Positions 14,055 to 37,114 of a stretch of DNA of 64,000 bases are shown here, one piece after another. Both the position numbers and the translations under genes were made by a program. Source of the stretch: Acutalibacteraceae bacterium. Lineage in GTDB: Bacteria > Bacillota > Clostridia > Oscillospirales > Acutalibacteraceae. How positions within the stretch are numbered: position 1 is the stretch's first letter; the number at the start of each line of letters is the position of its first letter. Under the pieces are notes generated by a model. The model did not search any database and was not told the origin of the DNA. It saw nothing but the letters and a program-made list of their open reading frames with translations. The DNA lies in contig JAZLLP010000006.1 in the NCBI GenBank assembly GCA_045598225.1, positions 22,230 to 86,229 on the forward strand, read 5' to 3'.

Positions 14055-16388
14055 TCACAACTCAACAATATTTTCAGGCTGTATATCTTCGTCAATAATG
14101 TTATAAGTTCCGCTTTCAAGTTTTTTCGTACTTCCGCCGTTATTTTCAAATGCGAAACCTTCGGGGAGTCTGATTGTGCCGTGAACGTTCTGCGGCGCAT
14201 CAACGGTGAGTTTTATTCCGCCGTAAACACGCTCCCATTTAACGCTTACCGCACCGCCCGTCGTTTTGTAAAACGCTACTGCATTGTTAAGTTTTTTAAC
14301 AAATACGGGGTAAATCATAACTTCCGAACTGTCACGCAGATACGGATTGACACGAATACCGCCGAGATATTCAATAAACCACGCCGAAATATCGCCGAAC
14401 ATGTGGTGATTGAGTGAACACGGAAACTCGTCTTTTCTCTTGAAATCTTCGGGAAGAGATGTAAGACCTCTTTCGACAAAGTTGCCGTATGACGGATAGT
14501 CGGGACGTGTTATCATTTTGTAAGCAAGGTCATATTCGCCGAAATCGGCAAGAACTCTGAAAAGAACTCTTGCGCCCAAAATGCCGACATCAAGATGACC
14601 GTCGCTTCTTTTTATTATTTTAAGAAGTTTTTTAAATGCTTCGGGCTTTTCGCCGTTTTCAAAAACATCAAAGAAAATAGCCATTGCCTGTGAAGTCTGG
14701 CAATTTCCTACGGCAGTCATTGTGCTGAAATCAATAAAATATTTTCTTACGCTTGTGCGAATTTCGTTATAAAGTCTGTCGGCAAAATCTTTTTGAAGTG
14801 AAAGACCGAGTTGTGAGAATATGTACGAAGCCTTGCTTAAAATGCTCATACACGTTACGCTGTCGGTAAATTCAAGAGGCGATTTGACCTCTGTTACGGG
14901 ACACCAGTCACCCAGACCGAATTCAAGAAGACCTCTTTCGTTACGCTTTCTTTCAATATATTCACAATAGCGGAAAATCGACGTTGCGCTTTCCTCGATT
15001 ATTTTTCTGTCGCCTCTCAAAACGTATGCGTAATAGGGAATGTAAGTAAGTGCGGCATCCCACGCAGGACCGTTACCCCATTCAAATCCCCAGCCGCCCG
15101 TGGGTACTATGCCGGGTAATGCTCCGTCTTCACGCTGTGCTTTTCTTATGTTTCGAACCCATTCACGGTAACTTTTTGTTGCGTTAAGATTCATAAGAAC
15201 GTGTTCGGCAGAAAGTGAAGCATCGCCCGTCCAGCCGTTTTTCTCACGGTGCGGGCAGTCTGTCGGAAAATAGTAAAAGTTTGAAAGGTCGGAATTTCTC
15301 GTCATAGCCTGCAAAGTGTTTGCTACTCTGTCAGAACATCGGAATCCGCCGAGTTCATCAAGAGAAGAACTGCTGACAATGTATGTGAGAAGTGACGGAA
15401 CGGCCTCTTCCTCGGTTATTCCGAAAACAACGCAGTAACGGAAACCGTGATATGTAAACACAGGCTCAAAAATTTCTTCGCCCTCACCTTTAAGAATGTA
15501 AATGTCACGCTGTGCATATCCGTCGGGATAAAAATCTATGTTGCTTATGTCGGGATTGCCGTCATCACAGATATATTCACCGAACTGTAAATCTATCTGC
15601 CTGCCGCGTTCACCGCGGATTTTAAGGCGTTCTATACCTGTGGCATTTATTCCGAAATCATAAAGATAACCTGTTCTTTCCTCGGTGGGAAGAGGATCGG
15701 CGATTTTTTCAACGTCACCTCTCGGTCTGTATTCTTTAACCGTGCATTTTCTTATTGAAACGGGACTTATATGTCTTATGGGAGCAATCGGGTCTGCTTC
15801 GCAAAGGCGGCGTTCACCTCTCGGTGTTTCCGCTATAATTGCGTCATCCCAGAAATCGTCAACGTATTTCGCCTGCGACCAGTCGGCTATCTCTTTACGG
15901 GCGTCGTAAAAACAACCGCATCTTAAATCGTCAAATATAACGGGTGACGGTGCGGTTTTCACGTTTCTGTCAGCCTCAATTACATCAATCTTGCCGTCTT
16001 TATTGAACACTTCTATTGCAAACGCAGTACGGGGCGCACCTCGGAAATCCGCTTTGTCAAAATCCCATATCTGACCGCCGGGTGCGTTCTGCATACCGTT
16101 TCCGAGATGTATTCCGAGAACGTTTTTACCTTCGGTAATATATTCTGTGATGTCGTATTCATCGTAGTAAACAATATCGTCCGGATTTGAAATGTAAGGC
16201 GCAAGTATGCCTTTTGTAATTTTGTGACCGTTTATAAATATGTCATAAAAACCGAGACCGGTTATTGTGACTTTGCATCTTTCCGGCTGTGAATAGATAA
16301 TAAAACTTTTTCTGAAATACGGTGCGGGTATATGCTCCGCATACGTATTGAATTTATGTCTTGCGCAGATAAATTTTTTTGAAAGCAT
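14055..16388 (-). CDS. alpha-L-rhamnosidase (GH78 family)
   Basis: Start moved to MLSKKFICA (the GTG in the track lies inside the RBS AGGAGTG). N-terminal rhamnosidase-like region (FINGHKITKGILAPY...) and conserved DCPHREKNGWTGD motif. Confidence 0.85.
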   Translation of the reverse strand: MLSKKFICARHKFNTYAEHIPAPYFRKSFIIYSQPERCKVTITGLGFYDIFINGHKITKGILAPYISNPDDIVYYDEYDITEYITEGKNVLGIHLGNGMQNAPGGQIWDFDKADFRGAPRTAFAIEVFNKDGKIDVIEADRNVKTAPSPVIFDDLRCGCFYDARKEIADWSQAKYVDDFWDDAIIAETPRGERRLCEADPIAPIRHISPVSIRKCTVKEYRPRGDVEKIADPLPTEERTGYLYDFGINATGIERLKIRGERGRQIDLQFGEYICDDGNPDISNIDFYPDGYAQRDIYILKGEGEEIFEPVFTYHGFRYCVVFGITEEEAVPSLLTYIVSSSSLDELGGFRCSDRVANTLQAMTRNSDLSNFYYFPTDCPHREKNGWTGDASLSAEHVLMNLNATKSYREWVRNIRKAQREDGALPGIVPTGGWGFEWGNGPAWDAALTYIPYYAYVLRGDRKIIEESATSIFRYCEYIERKRNERGLLEFGLGDWCPVTEVKSPLEFTDSVTCMSILSKASYIFSQLGLSLQKDFADRLYNEIRTSVRKYFIDFSTMTAVGNCQTSQAMAIFFDVFENGEKPEAFKKLLKIIKRSDGHLDVGILGARVLFRVLADFGEYDLAYKMITRPDYPSYGNFVERGLTSLPEDFKRKDEFPCSLNHHMFGDISAWFIEYLGGIRVNPYLRDSSEVMIYPVFVKKLNNAVAFYKTTGGAVSVKWERVYGGIKLTVDAPQNVHGTIRLPEGFAFENNGGSTKKLESGTYNIIDEDIQPENIVEL

Positions 16389-25026: not shown

Positions 25027-25422
25027 ATGAAAATTTTTATTTGCCTTGATGATGACAACGGAATGATGTTCAACAACCGCCGTCAAAGCCGTGACGGAAA
25101 AGTCGTTGAAGATGTTATAAAAACAGTTGGCGAGAACATACTTTTTACTGACGAATATTCAAAAAATCTGTTTAAAAATTTTGAAAACGTCACCGTTACA
25201 GACGAATTTCAGGATGACGGTTTTTTCTTTGTCGAAAACCGTGATATTGAAGAATTTTGCGAAAAAATATCGGTTTTGACCGTTTACAGGTGGAACAGAA
25301 AATATCCGAATGATTTTGCGCTTTCGTTCAATATTGAGGACAAAGGATTTAAACTTTTTGAAACTTCGGAATTTGAAGGCAATTCGCACGAAAAAATAAC
25401 AAAAGAGGTATGGGTAAAATGA
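25027..25422 (+). CDS. hypothetical protein (DHFR-like N-terminus)
   Basis: 131 aa with good RBS (GAAAGGGA). MKIFICLDDDNGMMFNNRRQSRD resembles RibD_C/DHFR-fold proteins; function not supported further. Confidence 0.6.
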   Translation: MKIFICLDDDNGMMFNNRRQSRDGKVVEDVIKTVGENILFTDEYSKNLFKNFENVTVTDEFQDDGFFFVENRDIEEFCEKISVLTVYRWNRKYPNDFALSFNIEDKGFKLFETSEFEGNSHEKITKEVWVK

Positions 25423-25850
25423 ACCGCACTTTAAGAATATTTTCTTTAGTTTTGTCGCTTCTGCTTCTTCTCGGCATATTTACTTCGTGCGACAAACCGA
25501 CAACTTTGCCGTATTACGCTCCCGAAGACACCGGCAAAAACGGCGAACTCACAACGGTTCGGGAAACTTCCGCAACAGGTGAATTTTCACTTTCGTCAAT
25601 TCCCGAATACAGCGGCAAACCGTACGTTACAGTCAATAACAACACTCCGTTTTTTAAAGAAAATGAAATAACAAAAAAATCTTATGAATACTACGCTCCT
25701 CTTGATTCGCTCCTCAGGTGCGGTGTAACTGTTGCCTGCATAGGCAAAGATTTGATGCCGACTGAAAAAAGAGGCGAAATCGGCTCGGTAAAACCGACGG
25801 GGTGGTGCAACGAAAAATATGATTTTATTGACGGGCATTATTTATACAAC
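25419..25850 (+). pseudogene. 5' part of a disrupted secreted DNA/RNA non-specific endonuclease (EndA-like lipoprotein)
   Basis: ATGA-coupled to the upstream gene. Lipobox LLLLGIFTSC. The frame reads ...VKPTGWCNEKYDFIDGHYLYN up to 25850, then enters element sequence (IWNI stop). It continues in frame at 36596. Confidence 0.85.
25845..25850. repeat. left copy of flanking direct repeat TACAAC (ATACAAC if extended 1 nt)
   Basis: The identical hexamer recurs at 36590-36595 immediately outside the right inverted repeat. Confidence 0.75.
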
Positions 25851-25873
25851 ATATGGAACATTTAGAAAGTGTT
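25851..25873. repeat. left terminal inverted repeat
   Basis: ATATGGAACATTTAGAAAGTGTT against the reverse complement of 36567-36589, TTATGGAACATTTTAAAAGTGTC: 19 of 23 identical. Confidence 0.8.
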
Positions 25874-25936
25874 AAATATTTAGCTAATAATAGGTGAACA
25901 CAATTGACTTAATTTTATTAATCAAGGAGATAGAAT

Positions 25937-27118
25937 ATGAATAATAAAACATTGAGAGTATGCTCACTATTATTGAGTTTGCTCTTACTTTTTTCTATAT
26001 ATGGTTGTGTTGGGGATTTTTCTGTAAATGTACAAGAACAACAGACAACAGAATCAATTACTAATACAACAGAATATTCAGGCGAGACCCCAATATATCA
26101 TGATGATAATTTCAAACTCCATATGCTTGATGTTGGACAGGGACTTTCTTTGCTTATAGAAAGTAACGGACATTTTATGATTTATGACGGCGGAGGAAGA
26201 GAGGCATCATCTTTTGTGGTAAGTTATTTAAAAAAATATGGTGTTAAATCTTTGGATTATATGTTTGTTTCCCACTATGATGAAGACCATATAAATGGTT
26301 TGGTCGGTGTACTACACACTGTTAAGTGTAGTGAGGTTGTTTGTCCGGATTATACTACAGATTCAAATGTATACAATTCATTCGTTAATGCAATGGCTGA
26401 TTCAAAAGCAATAATTAACCATCCTTTTATTGGAGATGAATTCAAGCTCGGAGATGCAAACATCCTGGTTGTTGGCCCTACAGACTATAATAATGACAAC
26501 GATAATGACCAATCTGTATCTATTAAAATAACCTGCGGTAATTATTCATATCTTGTTTGCGGCGATGCAACAACGGAAAGTGAATCCGAAATGCTCGGTA
26601 CAGGAATGAATCTTGATTGTGATGTGTATGTTGTAAGCCATCATGGAAGTTCGTCATCGAGCGGAATGTCGTTTTTGCGTACAATCACTCCGGAGTGTTC
26701 GCTGATTAGCAGCGGAAAGGATAATAAGTACGGTCACCCAACAGAGAAAACACTTTCATCTTTAGAAGAAGTAAATAGCGAAATATTCAGAACGGATGAA
26801 GAAGGAACAATAATTATAGAATCTGATGGCGATGACCTTGTAATAAGTGCGAATGACATTTTACTTTATTATAAAGAGAATCCTAATGATAGTGTAACAA
26901 GGGCATCGATTAACGCAAAAAATGAAAATAAAACAGAGACTGAGGTTTCTAATGAATCTCAGCAACAATACATCCTTAATACAAATTCCAAAAAATTTCA
27001 TTACCCTGATTGTCCATCAGTTGGAAAAATGAGTGAAAAAAATAAAAGGTCCGTAATTTCTTCACGAGATGAATTGCTTAATCAAGGATACGAGCCGTGC
27101 AATTACTGTAACAGTTAA
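25937..27118 (+). CDS. secreted MBL-fold hydrolase (ComEC C-terminal-like) with C-terminal Cys4 zinc-ribbon tail
   Basis: 393 aa, RBS AAGGAG. Lipobox-like LLFSIYGC. MLDVGQGLS ... SHYDEDH metallo-beta-lactamase motifs. Tail YILNTNSKKFHYPDCPSV...GYEPCNYC. Confidence 0.8.
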   Translation: MNNKTLRVCSLLLSLLLLFSIYGCVGDFSVNVQEQQTTESITNTTEYSGETPIYHDDNFKLHMLDVGQGLSLLIESNGHFMIYDGGGREASSFVVSYLKKYGVKSLDYMFVSHYDEDHINGLVGVLHTVKCSEVVCPDYTTDSNVYNSFVNAMADSKAIINHPFIGDEFKLGDANILVVGPTDYNNDNDNDQSVSIKITCGNYSYLVCGDATTESESEMLGTGMNLDCDVYVVSHHGSSSSSGMSFLRTITPECSLISSGKDNKYGHPTEKTLSSLEEVNSEIFRTDEEGTIIIESDGDDLVISANDILLYYKENPNDSVTRASINAKNENKTETEVSNESQQQYILNTNSKKFHYPDCPSVGKMSEKNKRSVISSRDELLNQGYEPCNYCNS

Positions 27119-27123
27119 TATAA

Positions 27124-27167
27124 GAGGCTATGACGAAATGAAAAGTTTCATCATAGCCTCGTTTTTT
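27124..27167. terminator. intrinsic terminator
   Basis: GAGGCTATGA ... TCATAGCCTC followed by GTTTTTT. Confidence 0.75.
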
Positions 27168-27175
27168 ATTTGTGA

Positions 27176-27385
27176 TTATGAAATTGTAATTTTTACCCGC
27201 TCTATTAATTCTATTTGATAATTCAGAGTATCATGAATCCGCTCCGCTGGCACACCCTTTTCGAGTAAAGTTTTTATAAAATCTTCTTTGTTATGCATAG
27301 AAACCTCCTCGGAAACTTTCTTAGTTACTTCTTTAATGCCTTTTTCAGTACCTTCTTTGATGGTTCCTTCGGAATCTTCTACCAA
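27176..27385 (-). CDS. small K/E-rich protein, paralog of 27647-28000 (start uncertain, TTG; possibly frameshifted)
   Basis: 69 aa. The tail FIKTLLEKGVPAERIHDTLNYQIELIERV aligns with IIALLDAGVSTELICDILECPAELVNEV of the divergent neighbour. An upstream ATG (MSKIMEDFG) is in another frame. Confidence 0.4.
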   Translation of the reverse strand: MVEDSEGTIKEGTEKGIKEVTKKVSEEVSMHNKEDFIKTLLEKGVPAERIHDTLNYQIELIERVKITIS

Positions 27386-27646
27386 AGTCTTCCATAATTT
27401 TACTCATAACATTATAAACTTTCATAAATTAAATTGTAAGAACATTTTTCCTCCGCCATATTATTATCTCCTACAGGGTTTGTTGTTATTTGCTAAATAA
27501 AACGGAGTTACCTCATAGGCAACTCCAAAATAAGCAGTATATCCTTACCGTTATTTATAAGACATATATCTTGCACTATTTACTTTAATGTCATATAATT
27601 ATGATTGTTACTTATATGCGAAAAAATAGAAAGGAGAACTTTGTTT

Positions 27647-28000
27647 ATGAGTGAAACCGAATCAAAAAAGTACTATGAAAACATGACTAACGAAATCTAT
27701 AAGGCTATTCACAAAAATATTGAAGAGAAACTTACAGATGAACTGATTGACGAGGTCGTTAAAGAAGCTACCAAACGGTTTGCTGATGACCTATCAAAGA
27801 AGCTTAGCAAGGAATTCACGGAACGAATCAAAAAAGATGTCACAGAGAACGTAACCCGAGAAATTAAGGAAAAGGAAATAATAGCTTTGCTTGATGCTGG
27901 AGTTTCAACCGAGCTGATTTGCGATATTCTCGAATGTCCGGCAGAACTGGTCAATGAAGTTCGGAACGCTCCGCCCACTTCGTTCGAGTGGATAGAATAA
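27647..28000 (+). CDS. small K/E-rich helical protein with HTH-like tail
   Basis: 117 aa from MSETESKKYY (RBS AAAGGAG). Charged heptad-like region, then LLDAGVSTELICDILECPAELVNEV. Confidence 0.6.
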   Translation: MSETESKKYYENMTNEIYKAIHKNIEEKLTDELIDEVVKEATKRFADDLSKKLSKEFTERIKKDVTENVTREIKEKEIIALLDAGVSTELICDILECPAELVNEVRNAPPTSFEWIE

Positions 28001-28014
28001 GTGATGAATATTAA

Positions 28015-28053
28015 AACAACGAGGACTTAATGTGATGAGTCCTCGTTGTTTTG
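28015..28053 (+). terminator. intrinsic terminator
   Basis: AACAACGAGGACT ... AGTCCTCGTTGTT followed by TTG. Confidence 0.7.
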
Positions 28054-28408
28054 CTCTTTTATCCACTATATTAGAGGGCGTGTCATATTTTTATCTCGCT
28101 GATTTAACAAAGAATTATTTAGTGTATTTTTTCCATCTCCATTATATTGTAATTACCCAAATTTATTCATAGTAGTTTTTTATTCTCTCAAAACATTTAT
28201 ATAGCTCTTGCGGATTTCATATTATATTTATAAGTGTGATATCAGGAGTAAAGATATTTAGATTTTATAACCCCTAAAGCGTCTTTAAAATGGTATTTCT
28301 ATAACCAGTATATAAAAAATTAAGTTATATTTATGTAACTTGCATGATAAAAAATAATAAAACGGTTGAAAAAAGAAAAAAATAATGTTAGAATAGGCGG
28401 TGCAAAAT

Positions 28409-28948
28409 ATGAAAGGGCTATCAGAAATGGAAAAACAATTAATTGAGCAAAAATCGCAAGAAATAATCAATAAATATAATTCTGATTCATCTAATGTTGA
28501 CATTGTAAAAATTGCAAAACAAATGGGATTTGTTGTTGGTGATGCAGTACTGTCGGAAGATTATGACGGTTTTATTCTTGTTAATAATAGTATTAAAAAC
28601 CTGCGTTCGCAAAAAGGTGTTAAGTTAATAGGTGTTAATCCAAGACTAACTCCCGAGGAGAAGAATTTTGTAATTGCTCACGAACTTGGCCATTACATTT
28701 TAGATAATGGTGAAAATGAAAGTATTTTTGCTCATAGAGAACATAAAAAGGGAAAAGATGATAAAGAAAACGATATTGATTATTTTGCTGCAAATGTTTT
28801 GATGCCTAAAGAACTCTTCGAAAAAAGATATAGAGCACTTAAGCCTCTATACAATGGTAATAATGACGGTTTAGTAGAGGATTTAGCCCGTTACTTTATG
28901 GTTGAATGTGACTGTGTAAAACGTAGGGTTGGTGAAGTAATTGGATAA
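28409..28948 (+). CDS. ImmA/IrrE family (COG2856) zinc metalloprotease
   Basis: About 179 aa. HEXXH as IAHELGHYIL, with downstream E...DYFAANVLMP typical of this family. Confidence 0.8.
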   Translation: MKGLSEMEKQLIEQKSQEIINKYNSDSSNVDIVKIAKQMGFVVGDAVLSEDYDGFILVNNSIKNLRSQKGVKLIGVNPRLTPEEKNFVIAHELGHYILDNGENESIFAHREHKKGKDDKENDIDYFAANVLMPKELFEKRYRALKPLYNGNNDGLVEDLARYFMVECDCVKRRVGEVIG

Positions 28949-29462
28949 ATCTGCTAATACAGACAAATATGAGTCTATATATCAAGACCTTTGTGATACA
29001 CCAATTTTATCTTCATATGAAAATAAAATTCAATTATCAAATAAAGACCCTTTTCAAACACAAGAACAAGAATTAAGAGACCAATCTATTACAATATTAT
29101 TAAGGGAATATGTTTGCTTTTTTAAAGACAGAAAAGAAGAAAACAAACAAGGTCGCAAGGAAATAAAATATTTTTGTTTTTTATCTGTGATTCTTTTGCT
29201 CGTTATAATCTTTAGTATTGTATCTCTGACTATTATACATAATGTTAAAGATATTTCGGTAGTGGCCGTTATCATTTCTTCCATTATAGGACTGTTTGGT
29301 TCCATATTTGGACTTATTAAATATGTCGCTATGTATTCATTCCCTGTAGAAGATGAGAAATATGTAACAGATATCGTTAAAGCGATTCAAGAAAATGATT
29401 TTAAGCATAAACACGAAAACTTCAAAATCTCCCAAGCATTAAAAAAGGATAATCAAGATTAA
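28941..29462 (+). CDS. hypothetical 2-TM membrane protein, translationally coupled to the ImmA-like gene
   Basis: 173 aa. TTG start overlaps the last codons of the upstream gene (8-nt overlap). Two hydrophobic helices (FCFLSVILLLVIIFSIVSLTII and VVAVIISSIIGLFGSIFGLI). No other in-frame Met near the start. Confidence 0.55.
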   Translation: MDKSANTDKYESIYQDLCDTPILSSYENKIQLSNKDPFQTQEQELRDQSITILLREYVCFFKDRKEENKQGRKEIKYFCFLSVILLLVIIFSIVSLTIIHNVKDISVVAVIISSIIGLFGSIFGLIKYVAMYSFPVEDEKYVTDIVKAIQENDFKHKHENFKISQALKKDNQD

Positions 29463-29476
29463 ATTTCTAAATTCTG

Positions 29477-29513
29477 ATGAACTGTCTGTTAAAGCAGACG
29501 GTTCATCTTTTTG
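29477..29513 (+). terminator. intrinsic terminator
   Basis: GATGAACTGTCTG ... CAGACGGTTCATC followed by TTTTT. Confidence 0.75.
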
Positions 29514-29772
29514 ATATACCTATCATATCAGAAAAAGACTGTGTTATTATAAAAATAATACTATTTGTTTTTCAACAATCAATAAATATATAGCATTGCT
29601 ATAATAAAAACCAATTTTCATGCGATTATAGGATGATAAAAAATATTATTTTACTATTGACATAATGTGAGTTATTGTATAAAATGAAATTGTATATAAA
29701 ATTATTTAATTTTATATAAAATTGTTTTACAAGAATACTTTAACATCACGCCGTGTTTAAGGAAGTGACAGT

Positions 29773-29961
29773 GTGTCAAGAGCGAAAAAGGATGGAGAAG
29801 CTATAAGTTTTTACATGAGTAAAGATGTTGCAAATCTTCTTCGCCAATATGCAGATGAAAAAGGTCAGACCCTTACAACAGCAGTAGAGAGATTGATATT
29901 AAAACAAATCGAAGTTGAAAGAATGTCTGAGAAACCAGAAAAACAAAAAGAATTGTATTAA
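29773..29961 (+). CDS. ribbon-helix-helix (CopG/Arc-like) DNA-binding protein
   Basis: 62 aa, GTG start after AAGGAAG. ISFYMSKDVANLLRQYADEKGQTLTTAVERLI fits the beta-strand/helix/helix RHH pattern. It sits directly upstream of the recombinase genes. Confidence 0.6.
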   Translation: MSRAKKDGEAISFYMSKDVANLLRQYADEKGQTLTTAVERLILKQIEVERMSEKPEKQKELY

Positions 29962-30167
29962 AAATACTCAACAATTAAATATATACCGCCAAATAGGACG
30001 TGCAATTAACAATCAACAAACGCCTAAATGCGGATGCTTATGATAATCAATGATTATTATCTGACTAACTTTGATGACGATTCTCTATGCATCTAATTCA
30101 TCGTACGCAGCATTCCGTATTTGTGCGTTTGTTTTATTTGTTGTTGTATTGTTTTATGGAGGAATAT

Positions 30168-31487
30168 ATGATAAAGGTTTCAGAGGTACGATGCTACGAC
30201 GGTATAAGATATCATGTAACATTCGCAAACAATAAAAAAATAGAAACATCCAATACAATAAACTATCGTACTGCTATCGTAGACAAAGATAATAAAAAAT
30301 ACTACATTTTATATTCATCAAAAATGGTTCCAATAAGTCCTGTCTTTGATTATATCAATTATAATATCGCAGATGCTTCCGATAATACAAAAGAAAAAAC
30401 ATTGTCAGCATTGCGATTTCTATATTCATTTTCAGAAATGATAGGCAAAGGAATAGACAAGTTTGTGCCAATGGATGTAATCGATTTAAGACGCTTTTTA
30501 TTAGGATATAACTATACTGGAACATCAATTTGTTTTGAGAATTTAACGGAGCGTTCCAACAAAACAATTAATGGCTATTTCAGTATTTACAGAAGCTATT
30601 TGAATTTTCTCAATGTAAAAGATTCTCCTTTTTTCAATAGCAAAAAGTCTTATCGTGTAATCGATTCGATAAGAAAAGAAACAGTTAAGTATGATTATAA
30701 CGTTAATATGTCTGCAGCATCCATTGAAGTGCCGGATTATGTATCAGTTAAAGATTTCAAAAAGATGTTAGATGATGTAAGAAAAAGACATCAAATTCGT
30801 GACGAATGTATTATTCGGTTAATGTATGAAAGCGGGTTGAGAATAGGTGAGGTCTTGGGGTTAACTAACGAAGACGTAGTAATACAAAACTATACCCCTA
30901 TCGTATTAATACGCAACAGGATTACCGATAAACCATATCAAAAAGCAAAGACCTGCATGGAAATAAAAAGACAATCCGACTACAAAAAGGCGATGAAGTA
31001 TATTGATTCAGGATATCAAATTGTGACAATATCCCAAGAACTATATGAACTTATCGGTAAGTATATAGATGAAGAACATTCAAAGCAAAGAATCGAACAC
31101 AAGCAAAACTATCAAAGTACAGCTATTACGGATTCAATAGATTCAGATGACGAAAATTTTTATATTTTTCTTAATGGCCTTGGCAAACCATTATCTCAAC
31201 GCATATGGAATATACAAATGCGTGAAATATTTAATAACATCGGTTTAGTTGTCGACAAAGGAAAGAAAGAACATAATCTCAATCATAGATTGAGACATGG
31301 CTTTGCGATGTTTAATGTGAAATATATGAAGAAACAACCATTGGAATTAAAACTACTATTACGCCATAAATCGCTTGCATCGGTTTCATGTTATTATAAA
31401 CCAACAAGAGAGGACCAGATTCAATTAAAAGGTGATTTCATAAAAAGTTTATACGACGTGATTCTGGAGCTGAAAGGGGAAGAGTAG
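30168..31487 (+). CDS. tyrosine recombinase A of trio
   Basis: Start moved to MIKVSEVRCYDG (RBS GGAGG). Catalytic pattern GLRIGE (Arg), HRLRHG (His-x-x-Arg-His), LLRHKSLASVSCYY (His...Tyr). Confidence 0.85.
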   Translation: MIKVSEVRCYDGIRYHVTFANNKKIETSNTINYRTAIVDKDNKKYYILYSSKMVPISPVFDYINYNIADASDNTKEKTLSALRFLYSFSEMIGKGIDKFVPMDVIDLRRFLLGYNYTGTSICFENLTERSNKTINGYFSIYRSYLNFLNVKDSPFFNSKKSYRVIDSIRKETVKYDYNVNMSAASIEVPDYVSVKDFKKMLDDVRKRHQIRDECIIRLMYESGLRIGEVLGLTNEDVVIQNYTPIVLIRNRITDKPYQKAKTCMEIKRQSDYKKAMKYIDSGYQIVTISQELYELIGKYIDEEHSKQRIEHKQNYQSTAITDSIDSDDENFYIFLNGLGKPLSQRIWNIQMREIFNNIGLVVDKGKKEHNLNHRLRHGFAMFNVKYMKKQPLELKLLLRHKSLASVSCYYKPTREDQIQLKGDFIKSLYDVILELKGEE

Positions 31488-34133
31488 ATGCCGAGAAAAG
31501 GTGCCGTAATAAAACTTGATTATAAAGATTTTAAGGATGAACAAATCGCTTCTGTCGTTGAAGAAATTCTTGTGAGTTCAGACAAGGTAATTAGAACCAG
31601 GGGCGTGAGTGCGAACAATCAAGCTAAAAAAATAATAATTAATGTTTGTAAAAATGCTTTAAGCGAGCTTTCAGTAAATGATTTTACAAGTGAAAATATT
31701 GCCAATCTTTTTAAAAACAAAACAACTAAAGAATGTCTTTACATACAAAGAGTACTTATCTCTTTACTGAAAAAGAAAATTATACCCGATGAAAATCTTT
31801 ATAAAATATTACCGTTTAAAAAAAGACTTTTAAAAATTTTCTACCAAAGCGATATTCCTATTATTTTATCAGCTCCGTATTATGATTTTCTGGTAATAAA
31901 TGATGTTTGTTTATTTGAAAATTTGTTCTTTTTTCAACCAGAATTAAAGGGAATTACACCGGGGTGGTTGAAAAATATTCTAATCGATTACGCTGAATAC
32001 TTGCGTGTGAATCAGCAGGGGACTCCGAAAAGCAACTATGCTTTGCTGACAAAAATGCAACGAATAATAACCGATTTATTCACTGAAATAAAAGATATTA
32101 ACGATATCAACAGAGATTGGCTTTTCAAATCTTTGACAGATTTCTCGTATATAAGTGGCGGAATGAAAATAGTTAATGACTTGTTGATAAAAATATCCGA
32201 AAAACAAAAAATAAAAGATAAATGGATATTAAAAATCCTTGCAGAACAACCTTATGTAACTGGTAATTATCAAGTATCTGAGTACCTTAAAATATTAGCT
32301 TGCGAAAACCCTGACTGTTTTTCCGTGAAAGAAAGTAAAAACAACGGATTTTCGGGTCTCTATATTGATGCTCCATACAATTCGGATTTATTTGTTACGC
32401 TAACTGAATATTTTGATTGTTCTGTATATCAATGCAAAGAATTCACCGATATAATGGGTAACTTTTATAAATCTTTGAATGATGATTCTATTTATTCGGC
32501 AGACGATATATCTTACAAATCTTTAGAGAGTTGTTCAAAATTCTTTTTATCTCGTAAAGGCAACCGCAATTCATATAGTACAATACTTGCAAATATTTTT
32601 TCGTTTTTTTACTTTGAGAAAAGATATAATATTTTCTCCCGCGATAAAATTAATCCCGAAATAATAACAAAACCCGGCATTATTAAATATATTGTTGATG
32701 GATATTGTGCTATAAAATACAATCCCTTTGAAGATGTGCCGATTTACGATAAATGGATTCTGATATTTGACCTCAATATTGAATCGCAAACAGTAATCAA
32801 GCCTGCAAATATTGAATTATTTGATTTTACAAAAATAAAGAATAAAACACTAAAAAATGCCTGTAAATTCTATATCTGGAAGGCTAACAGTACTATTAGC
32901 ACAAAGGCCGTGAGATTTTCACAATATATCGAATTTTTAAATTATATAAATGATTTGCAAACAGGCGGAGAGATATCTATATATTATTCTTCGAACCAAT
33001 CAACCGATAATGTGATTACCGCAACAGAAATAATGTCATATGATTTTTGGGTAAAAACACAGCATAAAACCGAATATTCTGCTAATCAAGTAAAAAGTAA
33101 TGTATTCGCATTCTTGCATTTTTTAGATGAAAATAAAGTGTTAAATGTTGATGAATGGGCATGGCAGTTTATTAAAGTGCAAAATCCCAAAAGTGGTAAC
33201 CCAAAATCAATTCCGGACAATGAATTGCAATTACTCAGCAAAATACTCAAAGAACGCGGTGAAAACAATATACGAGACAAAATCATATATTATATTTTTT
33301 GGATGTTAATTAATACTGAATTCAGACTTACAACCGTCCTTAATTTGAAAAGAGATTGCATACAAGAAGAAATAAAATCCGGACAATATTCGATAAAAAC
33401 AAAAGTTAAAACAAGTAAAAACGAATATGTTACCATACCAATATCAATTGAGGTAAAAAAACATGTTGACGAGATGATAAAAATAACCGAGCCCTTAAGC
33501 CAATCTCTTCGAGGAACCTTAAAGGGAAATTTTTTGTGTCTAATTCCCTGTAAAGGAACTAAAAAAGCCCATGTTCTTTCTAATGAAATATTCAGAAAGC
33601 ACATTGAATCAGCTTGCAAAGAGGCAAACATTTCTAAATATTCTGCAGCAAACATAAGAGACACCCATATGACAAAAGCCGAGCAATACAAAATACGAAA
33701 ACATCTTACTGATGCAGAACAAAACACGTTAACAGGACACCGTTCTTCTTATACAACAGATAAATTTTATGTTGACATGCCTATTGATGATTTGCTATCC
33801 GCTACATATGGAGTGATTATAGGAAATGTTGATATTGCGGGTAATATTGTTTCCGAAGCCTCTCCGGTAGTATCAGTAAAAAACGAAGTGTCTAATAATT
33901 GTGGATACTGTTCCGCCCATAGTTGTAATGAGTTTTCATATTTGGACTGTCTTATGTGTAAAAACTTTGTCACAACACCGTCCAGAATTGTTTTCTTTGA
34001 GGACCAAATAAAAATAATTGACGAAAAAATATTAAAAACATCCATTCCCCATGATAAGGAAGACCTTGTAAACATTAAACGATTACTGGTTTCATACAAA
34101 GAAAAAATCATTCAATTTAAGGAGACTAATTGA
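31488..34133 (+). CDS. tyrosine recombinase B of trio (881 aa, long N-terminal extension, C-terminal Cys cluster)
   Basis: TAGATG junction with the upstream gene. EFRLTTVLNLKRDC (Arg), NIRDTHMT, LTGHRSSYTTDKFY (His...Tyr). Cys cluster CGYCSAHSCNEFSYLDCLMC. Confidence 0.8.
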   Translation: MPRKGAVIKLDYKDFKDEQIASVVEEILVSSDKVIRTRGVSANNQAKKIIINVCKNALSELSVNDFTSENIANLFKNKTTKECLYIQRVLISLLKKKIIPDENLYKILPFKKRLLKIFYQSDIPIILSAPYYDFLVINDVCLFENLFFFQPELKGITPGWLKNILIDYAEYLRVNQQGTPKSNYALLTKMQRIITDLFTEIKDINDINRDWLFKSLTDFSYISGGMKIVNDLLIKISEKQKIKDKWILKILAEQPYVTGNYQVSEYLKILACENPDCFSVKESKNNGFSGLYIDAPYNSDLFVTLTEYFDCSVYQCKEFTDIMGNFYKSLNDDSIYSADDISYKSLESCSKFFLSRKGNRNSYSTILANIFSFFYFEKRYNIFSRDKINPEIITKPGIIKYIVDGYCAIKYNPFEDVPIYDKWILIFDLNIESQTVIKPANIELFDFTKIKNKTLKNACKFYIWKANSTISTKAVRFSQYIEFLNYINDLQTGGEISIYYSSNQSTDNVITATEIMSYDFWVKTQHKTEYSANQVKSNVFAFLHFLDENKVLNVDEWAWQFIKVQNPKSGNPKSIPDNELQLLSKILKERGENNIRDKIIYYIFWMLINTEFRLTTVLNLKRDCIQEEIKSGQYSIKTKVKTSKNEYVTIPISIEVKKHVDEMIKITEPLSQSLRGTLKGNFLCLIPCKGTKKAHVLSNEIFRKHIESACKEANISKYSAANIRDTHMTKAEQYKIRKHLTDAEQNTLTGHRSSYTTDKFYVDMPIDDLLSATYGVIIGNVDIAGNIVSEASPVVSVKNEVSNNCGYCSAHSCNEFSYLDCLMCKNFVTTPSRIVFFEDQIKIIDEKILKTSIPHDKEDLVNIKRLLVSYKEKIIQFKETN

Positions 34134-34134
34134 T

Positions 34135-35943
34135 ATGGGTATCGAAAATGCTAAATATATACATGAGTTGGATTTAGAATACACTCCTTCATTTCAAGGA
34201 AATATTTTCAACCAAGATAACGGATTATTAGCTACGATAAAAAAGTCCAATATTCTACCCTTTAAAGAGAAAAAAATATATTATTCGGATGATGTTTGGT
34301 ATTTGGGTGAATCAAATTATGCAAATACATCATTGCTTTTTACGAAGTGTCCCGACGTTTTTCGAGATGTCCTGAAAGATTATACCATTATCACGTTTAT
34401 TCAAACAGATATCAGATTAATAACATTAAAAAATCATGTCAGTGTGTTGTCACGCTTTTTTACTTTTCTATATGAAGACAATATAATTGATATTCAAACT
34501 ATGTCTATAAGTGATGTAAAAATTATTTTAAATAAATGGGAATATTCTGATTCGTTGTGTATGAACTTCATTTATTGTTTTAAAAATTTTCTATCATTTT
34601 ACAATACATTTATTCGTAAATATTTCGGTGATGAGTGGTTTGCGTTTTTGAACGAACAAAATTATGTTAAAAATTCCCAAAAGACCCCCAATATTCCTGA
34701 CGAGTATTTTAATAAATTAATATTAAAAACTATGAACATCGCTCGTGATAAAACCGCAGATACTTTAAATCGAGGGATTGCTTGCATGATACTGATTTTA
34801 TCACAGACAGGAATAAGGGTGGGAGAATTGGTTGAATTGAAAATAAATTCGCTTAAAGAAAAAGAAATAAGTAGTGGTCAAACAACAAGCTTTTTAATTT
34901 ATGAAACCACAAAAAGAACTCATGGTAATAGTTCTCCTGAAAAAGTAATTACATACGCAAATGAAATTGTTGTGTTCGCATACAAAACACTTGTAGAATT
35001 GTATGATGAATTGAGAAAACAGCACAAGTCAGAGTATTTGTTCCCTGAGGTCGCCTCGGTTTTTAACAAGGTGGATGTAGGCCGTTTTTATTGTTTGCTT
35101 GATGATTTCTTTTACTCGTTAAATAGTGATGATTTCCGTACGGTTTATTACACCAAAATTGAGAACCCGCCGCAACCTCTTCACAAGAAAGGTAGGGGAA
35201 AAGATGTAATATATATATCTCGTCCTAATTGTCATCAGTTCAGGGTTCATGCGTGTACGGAATTATATAATAAGGGTGTTCCGATAGAATATATCCAACG
35301 ATATATGTCTCATTTGACTTCGGAAACCACATCAGCATATATTAGACCACAAAACACCCCACAAGAAGATATGGCCGCGTCAATAGAAATTCTCAAAGGC
35401 ATTGTTAATGGTGACCTAACACCTATCGGAACTGATAAAAAACGATTGATAAACGGAATTCAGCAATTTATTAATGACAACCATTTCAACATTGAAAAAG
35501 ATATGGACGCCATAGTAAATAAGCTTAGTGAAAAAATACCAATAAGAATTAAGGCCGGTGGTGCTTGTATTAAATCTTCTCTTTTCCGCGAATGTTCTGT
35601 CGATGCCAAAACGAATGAATTTTACTGTGCGTACGGGGTTTGTCCTAACTTATTCACATTTTATTATACCATTGATGTGACATATGAAAAGTGTAAAACA
35701 CTACAAGATGCAATAATAATAAATGAGAATCGTGGCTGTGAAAAGCAAGTTCAGAAAAATAAAAACATGCTAAAAACCATAGCTCAAAAACAATTATTAC
35801 CCGAATTAGAAGAATTGAAACGACTTCTGGATGAAAAAGGAAGAGACTGGATTTTAGAAAAACATCCGGAATTATTTTATATTCTAAATAATTATTCTAC
35901 CATCATTAAGGAGGCAAGCGAATGGATATCGAATTATGCGTAA
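34135..35943 (+). CDS. tyrosine recombinase C of trio (602 aa, C-terminal Cys cluster)
   Basis: RBS AAGGAG, start 1 nt after the upstream stop. TGIRVGELVEL (Arg), HQFRVHACT (His-x-x-Arg-x-His), MSHLTSETTSAYI (His...Tyr). GGACIKSSLFRECS...FYCAYGVC. Confidence 0.8.
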   Translation: MGIENAKYIHELDLEYTPSFQGNIFNQDNGLLATIKKSNILPFKEKKIYYSDDVWYLGESNYANTSLLFTKCPDVFRDVLKDYTIITFIQTDIRLITLKNHVSVLSRFFTFLYEDNIIDIQTMSISDVKIILNKWEYSDSLCMNFIYCFKNFLSFYNTFIRKYFGDEWFAFLNEQNYVKNSQKTPNIPDEYFNKLILKTMNIARDKTADTLNRGIACMILILSQTGIRVGELVELKINSLKEKEISSGQTTSFLIYETTKRTHGNSSPEKVITYANEIVVFAYKTLVELYDELRKQHKSEYLFPEVASVFNKVDVGRFYCLLDDFFYSLNSDDFRTVYYTKIENPPQPLHKKGRGKDVIYISRPNCHQFRVHACTELYNKGVPIEYIQRYMSHLTSETTSAYIRPQNTPQEDMAASIEILKGIVNGDLTPIGTDKKRLINGIQQFINDNHFNIEKDMDAIVNKLSEKIPIRIKAGGACIKSSLFRECSVDAKTNEFYCAYGVCPNLFTFYYTIDVTYEKCKTLQDAIIINENRGCEKQVQKNKNMLKTIAQKQLLPELEELKRLLDEKGRDWILEKHPELFYILNNYSTIIKEASEWISNYA

Positions 35944-36449
35944 TCGAAACAGTTGAGGCTTTAGATGAAAATTATGAATTACTTCCGGAAAATGTGAAAA
36001 AACAATTAAAATCAATAGAAGAAATAATCTCAGGCAAGGAAAGTCTTCTTGGTCAATGTAAGGATAATCTCAAACAATCAGATTTTTCAATTAAATCGAT
36101 TTCAAAAGAATTAGGCTGTTCGCGTACAACATTATACAATACACCGTTATTCAAAAAATATATCGAATACCGCAGCGAAGTACTGGAAAATAATAACCCG
36201 ATTCAACAAGTGAAGATATCGCAGAATAAAATAAAAGAGTTAAATGATGTCATAAAACAGATGGAATTGCGTGATGTCGAAATTGAAAACCTAAAGCACG
36301 AGATTAAAATACTTAATAACAAACTTAAAGAAGCGACCGAAGTTAATGAAAATTTGAGAATATCCGTCAATGAATATAAAGCACAACTCAGTAAAGATTC
36401 TGAAAAATCTCATAAAAATACATGCTTATTTTATCCAAAAAATAAGTGA
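35922..36449 (+). CDS. HTH plus coiled-coil accessory protein (TnpC-like by position)
   Basis: 175 aa, RBS AAGGAGG, overlapping recombinase C by 22 nt. ISKELGCSRTTLYN HTH-like segment, then a heptad-rich coiled coil. Confidence 0.65.
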   Translation: MDIELCVIETVEALDENYELLPENVKKQLKSIEEIISGKESLLGQCKDNLKQSDFSIKSISKELGCSRTTLYNTPLFKKYIEYRSEVLENNNPIQQVKISQNKIKELNDVIKQMELRDVEIENLKHEIKILNNKLKEATEVNENLRISVNEYKAQLSKDSEKSHKNTCLFYPKNK

Positions 36450-36566
36450 ACACTTTTTAAAAATACATACTTAATTTGTACGCTTTTATTTTTAAATTAA
36501 GTTCATTTCGCCCAAAAACAATAAAAGTTAAATAATGTCAGTATTTATGCAGTTTCGCAGCGTTTG

Positions 36567-36589
36567 GACACTTTTAAAATGTTCCATAA
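36567..36589. repeat. right terminal inverted repeat
   Basis: GACACTTTTAAAATGTTCCATAA; its reverse complement matches 25851-25873 at 19 of 23 positions. Confidence 0.8.
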
Positions 36590-36595
36590 TACAAC
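36590..36595. repeat. right copy of flanking direct repeat TACAAC
   Basis: Identical to 25845-25850. In the rejoined gene one copy encodes the Tyr-Asn codons before RCHLIG. Confidence 0.75.
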
Positions 36596-37114
36596 CGCTG
36601 TCACCTTATAGGCTACCAACTTTCGGGCGAAAACGCAAACGAAAAAAATCTTATTACCGGCACAAGATATATGAACGTTGACGGTATGCTTCCTTTTGAA
36701 AATATGGTTGCCGATTATGTAAAAGAAACGGATAATCACGTTATGTACCGTGTAACACCCGTGTTTGACGGGTACAATCTTCTTGCTTCGGGCGTTCTTA
36801 TGGAAGCGTATTCGGTTGAAGATGACGGTGACGGCGTTCTTTTCTGCGTTTTTTGCTACAACGTTCAACCGGGTGTAAAAATAGATTATAAAACCGGTGA
36901 AAATGCAATTGACGGTAATTCATTAACCACCGCAAATGACAGTTCATCTTATAAAAACAGCTCATATATTCTTAACACAAAATCAAAAAAAATACATAAA
37001 CCGACTTGTTCTTCCGTAAATACAATAAATGAAGAAAACAAAGAAGAGTACAAAGGAAACATAGGCAATTTGCTCAATAAAGGTTACTCAAAATGCGGAA
37101 GTTGTTTTAAGTGA
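36596..37114 (+). pseudogene. 3' part of the disrupted EndA-like nuclease gene
   Basis: The frame is open from 36596: RCHLIGYQLSGENANEKNLITGTRYMNVDGMLPFENMVADYVKE... The track ORF begins only at the internal Met at 36671. C-terminal tail YILNTKSKKIHKPTCSSV...GYSKCGSC. Confidence 0.85.

Follow-up and report, generated by a model that had tools for sequence, protein, structure and literature searches.

A site-specific integrative element with three predicted tyrosine recombinases inside a secreted nuclease gene of an Acutalibacteraceae bacterium

The window analysed here, a stretch of 64,000 nucleotides from an Acutalibacteraceae bacterium, contains a secreted nuclease gene that is split by a 10.7-kb insert carrying its own cargo genes and a recombinase operon. 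The two parts of the nuclease gene and the ends of the insert are arranged as follows.

25410-25850, + strand: 5' part of the nuclease gene (lipoprotein; signal peptide to ...DGHYLYN), delimited with the uninterrupted orthologues L005 and L006
25844-25850, no strand: left 7-bp direct repeat ATACAAC, present once in the empty site, putative crossover (overlap) region
25852-25872, + strand: left terminal inverted repeat TATGGAACATTTAGAAAGTGT, from inverted-repeat comparison and a pattern search of the window
36568-36588, - strand: right terminal inverted repeat, reading TATGGAACATTTTAAAAGTGT on that strand, from the same comparison and search
36589-36595, no strand: right 7-bp direct repeat ATACAAC, identical to the left copy
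36596-37114, + strand: 3' part of the nuclease gene, resuming RCHLIGYQL..., from PF13930 and the empty-site comparison

When position 25850 is joined to 36596, a single ORF of 960 nt (319 aa) with one terminal stop is obtained, while neighbouring joins around 25850/36596 give 18 stops, and the rejoined protein matches PF13930 (Endonuclea_NS_2, 1.1e-21). Its RCH motif aligns by eye with what we take to be the active-site motif, DRGH, of such nucleases. Two related metagenomic contigs, L005 (87% nucleotide identity) and the syntenic L006 (83%), contain the nuclease gene uninterrupted, with the junction ...TATTTATACAAC|CGCTGTCAC... and a single ATACAAC. Both carry the gene intact at the exact insertion point, which confirms the proposal of the initial annotation that a split nuclease ORF can be rejoined to 319 aa. 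The insertion into the secreted nuclease gene is precise. Because ATACAAC is present exactly once in two relatives, it is unlikely that the empty alleles are deletions of an ancestral segment 25851-36595. The 5' frame of the nuclease continues for five codons inside the element and then meets a stop, and at the other end translation from the element cannot enter the 3' part, because of an in-frame stop at 36587-36589; the nuclease is inactivated by the insertion.

The terminal inverted repeats are 21 nt long and imperfect, with 90% complementarity (19/21 matched), and their pattern occurs at only two places in the window, both at the element ends (0.02 expected), with no further copies elsewhere in the window. 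From the anatomy of direct and inverted repeats, the insert spans 25851-36588, or 25851-36595 including one repeat copy, within a few bases of the boundaries given previously (25851-36589). The GC content is 31.4% in the insert, whereas the flanks, each taken as about 20 kb, have 39.8% and 39.3%. Both the short terminal inverted repeats and the higher AT content had been noted in the initial annotation, the latter from hand counts, and both hold at these values. A partial direct copy of the inner part of the right inverted repeat is present at 36448-36463.

The left part of the element contains cargo genes, followed by a candidate regulator and its upstream region.

25937-27118, + strand: lipoprotein with ComEC-type metallo-beta-lactamase fold (PF00753, 3.5e-15; TIGR00361 ComEC, 2.2e-39; phrog_14556, 2.4e-91)
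27605-28000, + strand: cargo ORF of 131 aa, Glu/Lys-rich, with no assigned function (ORF call)
28012-28053: terminator-like hairpin after the 131-aa ORF
28400-28948, + strand: ImmA/IrrE-type M78 metallopeptidase, CapP/RmrA-like (PF06114, 3.6e-17; PADLOC capP, 1.2e-19; phrog_87)
28941-29462, + strand: cargo ORF of 173 aa with an apparent membrane-spanning hydrophobic segment, overlapping the M78 gene
29476-29507: terminator-like hairpin after the 173-aa ORF
29657-29685, + strand: best sigma-70-like promoter match in the element, TTGACA-17-TAAAAT, by consensus match (11/12)
29773-29961, + strand: RHH (ribbon-helix-helix, CopG-like) protein of 62 aa, candidate operon regulator (PF16777, 1.1e-06)

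None of the cargo ORFs has internal stops. The ComEC-type lipoprotein and the interrupted nuclease share homologous C-termini, over ~100 aa of the lipoprotein (34% identity, E 4e-12). The sigma-70-like promoter match precedes both the RHH gene and the recombinase operon, which together make up the right half of the element as one operon encoding the RHH regulator and four further proteins, here called A, B, C, and D.

30168-31487, + strand: A, tyrosine recombinase of 439 aa, Tn554 TnpA-like (PF00589, 3.9e-13; family HMM vs TnpA)
31488-34133, + strand: B, divergent tyrosine recombinase of 881 aa (AlphaFold/Foldseek, catalytic residues, homology to C)
34135-35943, + strand: C, tyrosine recombinase of 602 aa, Tn554 TnpB-like (PF00589, 5.5e-14; family HMM vs TnpB)
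35922-36449, + strand: D, HTH and coiled-coil accessory protein of 175 aa (weak Pfam match), overlapping the end of C

The four genes are all uninterrupted and overlap or lie 0-1 nt apart. A longer ORF of 466 aa is open for A, but the start lies at 30168, where a GGAGG site precedes it, and alignments with homologues begin at residue 28 of this longer frame, in agreement with the 439 aa assigned earlier. The catalytic residues R252/H400/R403/H427/Y436 of A (466-aa ORF numbering) are invariant across the family described below. B has no match in Pfam; it has a long helical N-terminal region and a C-terminal Cys cluster. Its AlphaFold (AF2) model (pLDDT 87.5) matches PDB structures of XerH, Cre, and lambda Int in Foldseek. 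Conservation of R613/K641/R724/H751/Y761 amounts to 97-99% among 127 homologues, and these residues are present in 14/14 locus members. B is a distant paralogue of C, with homology between the two extending over 416 columns (probability 98%); in C, R228/K260/R370/H393/Y402 and a C-terminal Cys cluster are likewise conserved. Tyrosine-recombinase catalytic residues are kept in A, B, and C alike. The presence of three tyrosine recombinases, first proposed from the ORF translations, is therefore upheld, for A and C by PF00589 and for B by the model and the conserved residues, and the assignment of the fourth gene as HTH/coiled-coil stands at the level of weak Pfam matches.

The element is real, intact, and site-specific, and is of the Tn554/SE/GInt kind; judging from its intact genes, ends, and repeats, it may still be mobile, which the initial annotation held to be probable. 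The analysis revealed no circle junction, no second copy (within the window), and no empty allele from the same strain. An old insertion that has kept intact genes by chance and no longer moves would fit the single-copy state of the element, the proteins of which are singletons in a collection of 15 billion proteins with no identical copy, and no identical element was found in a metagenome scan for its ends. Such a dead relic is improbable, however, given four uninterrupted module genes, cargo ORFs free of internal stops, intact catalytic residues, inverted repeats matched at 19/21 positions, and identical 7-bp repeats. Moreover, the GC content is still 8 points below that of the host, which argues for recent arrival.

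If the element is mobile, it would excise or copy out as a circle in which its two ends abut. The circle joint, ...AAATGTTCCATA-ATACAAC-A-TATGGAACATTT..., would then constitute a classic tyrosine-recombinase core site with two inverted arms and an overlap of 7-8 bp, and would recombine with the ATACAAC located in the codons just before the RCH motif of the nuclease. Since attB and the element ends have nothing but the overlap in common, the element arms and the target half-sites are probably recognised by different members of the trio, which would divide the labour in a heteromeric synapse. D may help assembly or orientation, by analogy with TnpC of Tn554 and Srap/GinD of SE/GInt, whose type of position it occupies. 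Precise recombination of attL with attR would bring back an intact nuclease gene. The identical 7-bp repeat fits conservative recombination and, equally, carriage of 6 bp from an identical previous site as in Tn554 and SEs.

Relatives of B comprise 504 cluster representatives out of 1.84 billion at E<=1e-3, and 252 at the stricter cutoff of E<=1e-30; B ranges from 722 to 889 aa in the family. The order A-B-C-D was found wherever the contig allowed, at 15 further loci (13 in genomes, one metagenomic element spread over two contigs, and megaplasmids of Enterococcus faecium), and B varies in step with A, C, and D, at 25-39% identity. Wherever the junction is readable (10/10 members), the insertion lies within a protein-coding gene, and a surrogate of the broken gene is carried by at least two members. 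The element of E. faecium pBN83-1 is 26.8 kb long and lies inside hsdM with the 6-bp repeat CGTCTT, and its empty site is found in pNUITMVRE1_1; it is an independent second case of the same insertion logic. In most members, 120-260 nt separate the left junction from the start of the operon, and cargo between the left end and the operon is found in the present element and the E. faecium element. One E. faecium member hosts a nested Tn554-family element. We found no description of a Bacillota-wide A-B-C-D family in the literature. Based on the sequence relationships considered below, the four-gene kit appears to be distantly related to Tn554 and to define a widespread Firmicutes family.

Three adjacent tyrosine recombinases that keep the catalytic Tyr and lie between inverted repeats are also found in RIT elements (ritA-ritB-ritC). 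But RIT recombinases are 315-410 aa long, the terminal inverted repeats are 34 bp, and RitA, RitB, and RitC are the only recombination proteins given (PMC10214605, Table 1). The present element is set apart from this description by its 439/881/602-aa recombinases, two of them very large, its conserved fourth gene, and its cargo. NCBIfam and Pfam scans of the module gave generic Xer/integrase matches only. No phage structural, relaxase, conjugation, or mobilisation genes were found among the element ORFs, and the family is absent from phage collections, B having no relatives in GenBank phages and IMG/VR. We consider it highly improbable that the element is a RIT or the remnant of a prophage or ICE.

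A distant relationship exists to Tn554, which inserts at att554 (radC) with a 6-bp core and carries its right-hand hexamer from the previous site. The family HMM of A scores 78.1 bits against Tn554-family TnpA (L004), and relatives of A match TnpA by BLASTP at E 3e-13. For C, the family HMM scores 55.7 bits against TnpB, C of the present element shares 26% identity with TnpB across 220 aa (E 1e-9), and Tn554-family TnpB genes of staphylococcal and enterococcal plasmids are retrieved when C is used in tblastn. D and TnpC share an HTH and coiled-coil build, and TnpC is the best reference match of the family-D HMM, albeit a weak one (14.8 bits); Pfam DUF6262 is touched by only 1/9 D proteins (E 0.036), as compared to 2.2e-16 for true TnpC. 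The initial annotation held that the element matches neither Tn554 nor RIT: indeed no named family matches it end to end, but homology to Tn554 (TnpA 78, TnpB 56, TnpC 15 bits) does exist.

The element might accordingly be suspected to be a plain Tn554-family transposon (tnpA-tnpB-tnpC) with an extra integrase gene as passenger, since, of the reference proteins compared, TnpA, TnpB, and TnpC pair best with A, C, and D, respectively. Like Tn554 and its relatives (Tn558, Tn559, Tn6188, and Tn6674), the present family is found in Firmicutes hosts and combines strict target specificity with junction sequences of 6-7 bp, and, as noted, an E. faecium member even has a Tn554-family element nested within it. 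However, the Tn554 module of three genes has exactly two recombinases and no counterpart of B, whereas here the tnpA-like gene is followed, wherever the contig allowed, by a second large recombinase and only then by the tnpB-like gene, in frames that overlap or abut; B co-varies with its neighbours and keeps its catalytic residues. In addition, the similarity to Tn554 proteins is remote, at very low sequence identity and with D below the DUF6262 threshold, and the targets are other genes (the nuclease in the present element) rather than radC/att554. The identical junction 7-mers fit a carried or a shared core alike. We regard the passenger explanation as rather unlikely.

In architecture, the present element comes closest to the four-gene elements of the SE and GInt families (PMC10214605, PMC5385486), which the initial annotation had left out of its comparison. 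SEs are strand-biased circularizing integrative elements with the genes intA-tfp-intB-srap (Idola et al. 2023, PMC10214605), in which attL x attR gives a circle from one strand and no empty site is left (PMC10214605). The order and size pattern are the same here, namely an ordinary recombinase, a very large recombinase-fold protein, a large recombinase, and a small HTH/coiled-coil protein (439/881/602/175 vs 545/614/671/161 in pAQU1). SEs likewise have short imperfect terminal inverted repeats around a ~6-bp spacer in the joined form, lack mobilisation genes, are target-specific, and have a GC content below that of their host. GInts (ginABCD; Bardaji et al. 2017, PMC5385486) consist of two catalytic recombinases, a degenerate GinC in third place, and GinD, all four genes being required for recombination (PMC5385486). 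They also combine three recombinase-type genes with a small fourth one and insert with high specificity, often at gene ends, with a deduced 6-7-nt staggered crossover.

The element could be a Firmicutes member of SE or GInt, possibly corresponding to the 'gin operons' of Roseburia inulinivorans and Eubacterium cylindroides, two Firmicutes loci listed with undefined ends in Table S3 of Bardaji et al. (PMC5385486). Layout, imperfect terminal repeats, and target specificity agree with such a membership. Nevertheless, we think it has a low probability. Tfp and GinC are without RHRY residues (PMC10214605), whereas B keeps its catalytic residues; the gene order differs from that of GInts, no recombinase being degenerate here; and SEs are reported from Gammaproteobacteria only, outside of which PSI-BLAST by their authors found no Tfp or Srap homologue (PMC10214605). 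The B HMM against Tfp (-1.5 bits) and the D HMM against Srap (0.3 bits) detected no similarity. Comparison with the E. coli Sakai GinA-D proteins gave a weak similarity of A to GinA (19 bits) as the only one (GinC -2.5, GinD 4.9 bits).

On balance, we slightly favour the view that the insert is an intact integrative element of the site-specific type, a transposon as the word is used for Tn554, belonging to a Bacillota-wide family for which no description was found in the literature. A broader reading, which seems plausible to us at somewhat less than even chances, is that it is the first recognised representative of a Tn554-related family with three catalytically competent tyrosine recombinases and a TnpC-like protein, which homes into conserved motif-coding stretches of genes (nuclease, hsdM, nadE, rtcB, cca, and Y-family polymerase) and in some cases brings along a replacement copy, or a surrogate 5' end, of the broken gene. 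If this is true, the four-gene systems of the SE/GInt type have a Gram-positive counterpart, possibly an evolutionary bridge that links SE and GInt to Tn554.

The open reading frame of the secreted nuclease starts at 25410, reads ...DGHYLYN up to 25850, continues for five foreign codons and then meets a stop. Joining 25850 to 36596 gave a 960-nt ORF of 319 aa whose sole stop is terminal, whereas adjacent joins gave 18 stops, and the rejoined product matched the DNA/RNA non-specific endonuclease family PF13930 (Pfam, 1.1e-21). Its nearest intact homologues, with 87% and 77% protein identity, are found on two contigs from relatives (L005 and L006), the latter of which retains the neighbourhood of the window (hybrid kinase, 131-aa gene, nuclease, and Met-tRNA synthetase). 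Both relatives are uninterrupted at the exact insertion point, where they read ...TATTTATACAAC|CGCTGTCAC..., with a few substitutions in L006, and contain ATACAAC only once. Thus, the 319-aa ORF and the uninterrupted alleles bear out the initial annotation, which had described a nuclease gene split by an insert and restored by this join, and its boundaries, 25851-36589, were right to within a few bases. The insert is also more AT-rich than its flanks, as had been estimated by hand, with 31.4% GC inside and 39-40% in ~20 kb on each side. No tRNA was found in the 64-kb window. Judged by the nuclease homologues and by the taxa of related loci, the host is a Clostridia-like bacterium. The features of the element are as follows.

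Features of the window element
25844-25850 and 36589-36595: 7-bp direct repeat ATACAAC at the insert boundaries
25852-25872 and 36568-36588: 21-nt terminal inverted repeats, 19/21 complementary, just inside the direct repeat
25937-27118: cargo, lipoprotein with ComEC-type metallo-beta-lactamase (MBL) fold
Cargo: two small Glu/Lys-rich ORFs
28400-28948: cargo, ImmA/IrrE-type M78 peptidase with CapP/RmrA-like scores
28941-29462: cargo, 173-aa ORF with a hydrophobic segment, overlapping the M78 gene
29657-29685: best promoter match in the element (11/12), upstream of the ribbon-helix-helix gene
29773-29961: ribbon-helix-helix gene, 62 aa
30168-31487: recombinase A, 439 aa, with a GGAGG ribosome-binding site
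31488-34133: recombinase B, 881 aa, first base directly after the A stop
34135-35943: recombinase C, 602 aa, starting one base past the B stop
35922-36449: D, 175 aa, overlapping the C end

The inverted-repeat pattern, for which 0.02 matches were expected, has no further occurrence in the window beyond the two ends. Further copies of the termini had been suggested as worth a search; the termini proved unique in the window, and four metagenome matches to the 21-nt end motif were dismissed as chance, being without further similarity or a nearby module. Immediately 3' of the D stop, GAACACTTTTTAAAAA (36448-36463) is a direct copy of the inner part of the right inverted repeat, GGACACTTTTAAAATG (36566-36581), and stands ~120 nt upstream of it, while GTGAACAC is found again near the left end (25893-25903). 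Motifs resembling TGTTCAA, TGTACAA, and TGAACA are dense in the end regions of other members, and such repeated motifs near the ends may be candidate accessory binding sites.

When the ends of the window element are joined, they read ...AAATGTTCCATA-ATACAAC-A-TATGGAACATTT..., and the predicted joint of the element ends is AAAATGTTCCATAATACAACATATGGAACATTTAG, with TATTTATACAACCGCTGTCACC as the predicted repaired nuclease allele. Judged from the sequence, the joined ends would place a 7-8-bp spacer between two arms in inverted orientation, the canonical core site of tyrosine recombinases. ATACAAC is therefore best read as an overlap region common to the element joint and the target, rather than as a transposase-type duplication. 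The target site, attB, resembles the element ends in the overlap only. Partly for this reason, and in analogy to the genes that Tn554, SE (intA-tfp-intB-srap) and GInt (ginABCD) elements require, we suspect a division of labour in which the element arms and the target half-sites may be read by different recombinases among the three. The data fit either a cut-out mechanism, in which the nuclease is restored, or an SE-like copy-out. To our knowledge, Tn554, SE, GInt, and RIT (recombinase-in-trio) elements are the least understood of the tyrosine-recombinase elements, and we know of no account of why multi-recombinase transposons have several recombinases or of whether they are cut out or copied out.

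The cargo makes up the left 3.8 kb of the element. The MBL lipoprotein matches the phage family phrog_14556 (2.4e-91), and its C-terminal ~100 aa are homologous to the C-terminus of the interrupted nuclease (34% identity, E 4e-12), with paired Cys motifs in the shared region (25937-27118 product against 36671-37114). There is thus a hint that the lipoprotein may substitute for the secreted DNase function destroyed by the insertion. ImmA/ImmR and CapP/CapH pairs usually include an adjacent HTH partner gene, which the M78 gene lacks. Beyond the cargo, the element looks like a single transcription unit, with the D stop 118 nt from the right inverted repeat.

All three large ORFs had been taken for tyrosine recombinases. 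For A and C this was confirmed by matches to PF00589, but B had no match in Pfam, PHROG models or PDB sequences (including a profile of B against PDB) and only a weak match to an NCBIfam Xer model (2.4e-4). A word-index protein search found only three proteins from the B sequence by itself and again three from a 55-sequence alignment, and the B family became visible only through an exhaustive HMMER scan of 1.84 billion proteins, which gave 504 cluster representatives, 252 of them at E<=1e-30. Across 127 full-length homologues, conservation is 97-99% at residues R613, K641, R724, H751, and Y761 and likewise in a five-Cys cluster at the C-terminus. An AlphaFold2 model of B built on 55 homologues (mean pLDDT 87.5) matched XerH, XerA, IntI, Cre, Tn1549 Int, and lambda Int in Foldseek over ~330-350 columns with a probability of 1.0, and profile-profile comparison showed that B and C are homologous across 416 columns (probability 98%). 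These conserved residues, the structural matches and the homology to C establish that B is also a tyrosine recombinase. The equivalent catalytic residues show little or no variation in the families of A and C. D combines a conserved helix-turn-helix (SRxTxYN) with a coiled coil at its C-terminus.

The order A-B-C-D was present wherever the contig allowed. Thirteen genome loci carry it: those of Ruminococcus albus 8, Vallitalea, Blautia, Clostridium, Acetobacterium, Anaerobium, Anaerocolumna, and Mobilitalea, and the remainder in MAGs of Peptostreptococcaceae, Oscillospiraceae, Lachnospiraceae, and Bacillaceae and in one MAG labelled Anaerobiospirillum. Nine Enterococcus faecium megaplasmids carry it as well, with three of the four genes annotated as 'hypothetical protein'. 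Orthologue identity across the family is 25-47%, and the family was not found in GenBank phages or IMG/VR. In one metagenomic member, recovered on two contigs, a VRR_NUC gene is inserted after A (126 aa, between A and B; L001 2657-3037, L002 1852-2232), and the terminal repeat ATCAC(G/A)AAGTTAGCTAACA occurs twice at the left end of this member, 164 bp apart. The locus labelled Anaerobiospirillum sp., a gammaproteobacterial genus, is a MAG contig (L010) with the element inside a sodium:solute symporter gene, and reflects either genuine spread beyond Bacillota or an error in binning.

Generic searches for inverted repeats, alone or with direct repeats, located the ends of the window element and L001 only; the ends of other members were located via empty sites (E. 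faecium) or truncated target genes. At least one junction was readable in ten members, and in all ten it lies inside a protein-coding gene, as listed here.

Target genes of ten members (target domain cut short at the element junction, Pfam)
Window member: EndA-like nuclease, just 5' of the RCH motif
E. faecium member: hsdM, inside N6_Mtase
L013 and L015: hsdM
L014 and L018: nadE
L017: rtcB
L012: cca
L011: Y-family polymerase gene
L010: sodium:solute symporter gene

The three hsdM insertions (L013, L015, and E. faecium L003/L024) are in independent, mutually divergent elements and hit three different conserved places of N6_Mtase. Together with the window nuclease, they hint at a preference for DNA-degrading or defence-system genes, albeit in a small sample. 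In L012 (Mobilitalea MAG), the host cca is cut at the FTINA-motif codons with loss of the PolyA_pol head domain, and a full-length cca, 40% identical, begins 25 nt after the D stop (copies at 6821-7870 on the minus strand and 14065-15411 on the plus strand). This second copy appears to be a substitute, carried by the element, for an essential target. L018 (Anaerocolumna) contains another nadE copy (53% identity) on the downstream side of D. The host-side hexamer at its nadE junction (~7960-7975) is GATGTA, which we take to be the att554 core hexamer of Tn554, probably by coincidence. The L011 element (Peptostreptococcaceae MAG) is minimal, with ~6.4 kb and A-D only. An imperfect direct repeat of ~155 bp (8180-8334 and 14610-14760) stands on either side of it and corresponds to the 5' end of the polymerase gene: a 57-codon 5' fragment lies upstream of A, with the gene complete downstream of D. 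Alignment of these copies extends to AACGAGGCCAGCCG-N-CA-Y-GGAA; the element thus appears to provide a substitute 5' end that would keep its target intact. An apparent terminal inverted repeat of L011 proved to be the repeated 5' ends of the polymerase genes. Insertion into conserved codons, combined with replacement of essential targets, would serve as a rule for automatic end-finding.

In most members, A starts 120-260 nt from the left junction; the window and E. faecium members are unusual in that cargo separates the operon from the left end. An operon that lies at the right end and reads outward, considered as a general feature, holds for these two but was rejected as a rule for the family. 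The E. faecium element of pBN83-1 (L024, NZ_CP142416.1 36000-72000), the second case to be fully resolved, agrees with that of the window: it is 26.8 kb long, interrupts hsdM, and is bounded by the 6-bp repeat CGTCTT, its D stop being 186 nt from the right junction; in the empty site of pNUITMVRE1_1, hsdM is intact and reads ...GCTAT-CGTCTT-GCCACACGG.... The type I hsdS/hsdR genes beside the module, considered as cargo, belong to the target locus. Within the E. faecium element lie a Tn554-family module, carrying optrA and erm(A), and an IS256-family element, both of which are later acquisitions; on this resistance megaplasmid, a three-gene relative is thus nested in a four-gene element. B, C, and D of the E. 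faecium element bear the annotation 'hypothetical protein', and the family is relevant to the annotation of such resistance plasmids.

The precise insertion, the empty sites, and the conserved catalytic residues support the original view of an intact, site-specific multi-recombinase element with three tyrosine recombinases. For comparison with known systems, HMMs of A, B, C, and D, built from 14-15 members each, were scored on a Tn554-family module (L004), the SE of pAQU1 (L021), and the GInt of E. coli Sakai (L022).

Scores of the family profiles on the reference modules
A against Tn554 TnpA: 78 bits
C against Tn554 TnpB: 55.7 bits
B against Tn554 TnpB: 17.7 bits
D against Tn554 TnpC: 14.8 bits
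A against GInt GinA: 19 bits
C against SE IntB: 16 bits
B against SE Tfp, D against SE Srap, and B against GInt GinC: each below 1 bit

These scores argue that the element's proteins are remote Tn554 relatives, and the module reads as tnpA-like, an extra tnpB-like paralogue, tnpB-like, and tnpC-like genes. The earlier impression that it matches neither Tn554 nor RIT holds in that no named family matches end to end; A, C, and D are nonetheless related to Tn554 proteins. The layout of ordinary, very large, large, and small genes is that of the SE intA-tfp-intB-srap, an operon reported from Gammaproteobacteria only, which differs from Tn554 by its extra middle gene (PMC10214605). GInts are reported from Gamma- and Betaproteobacteria, with a few examples in other phyla mentioned in passing. 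Tn554 relatives were listed only for Staphylococcus and Enterococcus in the 2023 SE review, and an earlier survey found them in Actinobacteria too (PMC3414803). Full-text literature searches turned up no account of a Firmicutes family of this kind, with the caveat that Bardaji et al. (PMC5385486) list undefined 'gin operons' in Roseburia inulinivorans and Eubacterium cylindroides, which might belong to it. In the literature covered here, four-gene systems are essentially Proteobacterial; the large family found here is from Clostridia and Enterococcus.

As in most members of this family, the first gene of Tn554 and SEs lies near the left junction, from which the window and E. faecium members differ. 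Unlike Tfp of SEs and GinC of GInts, which have lost the RHRY residues, B retains its catalytic residues, and three recombinases, all catalytically intact, distinguish the element from both Tn554 and SEs. A family with such a middle recombinase offers a natural comparison for the role of the extra protein. The element is best filed as a variant within the Tn554/SE/GInt multi-recombinase transposons, Tn554-related in sequence and SE-like in layout, and its family may plausibly connect these groups in evolution.
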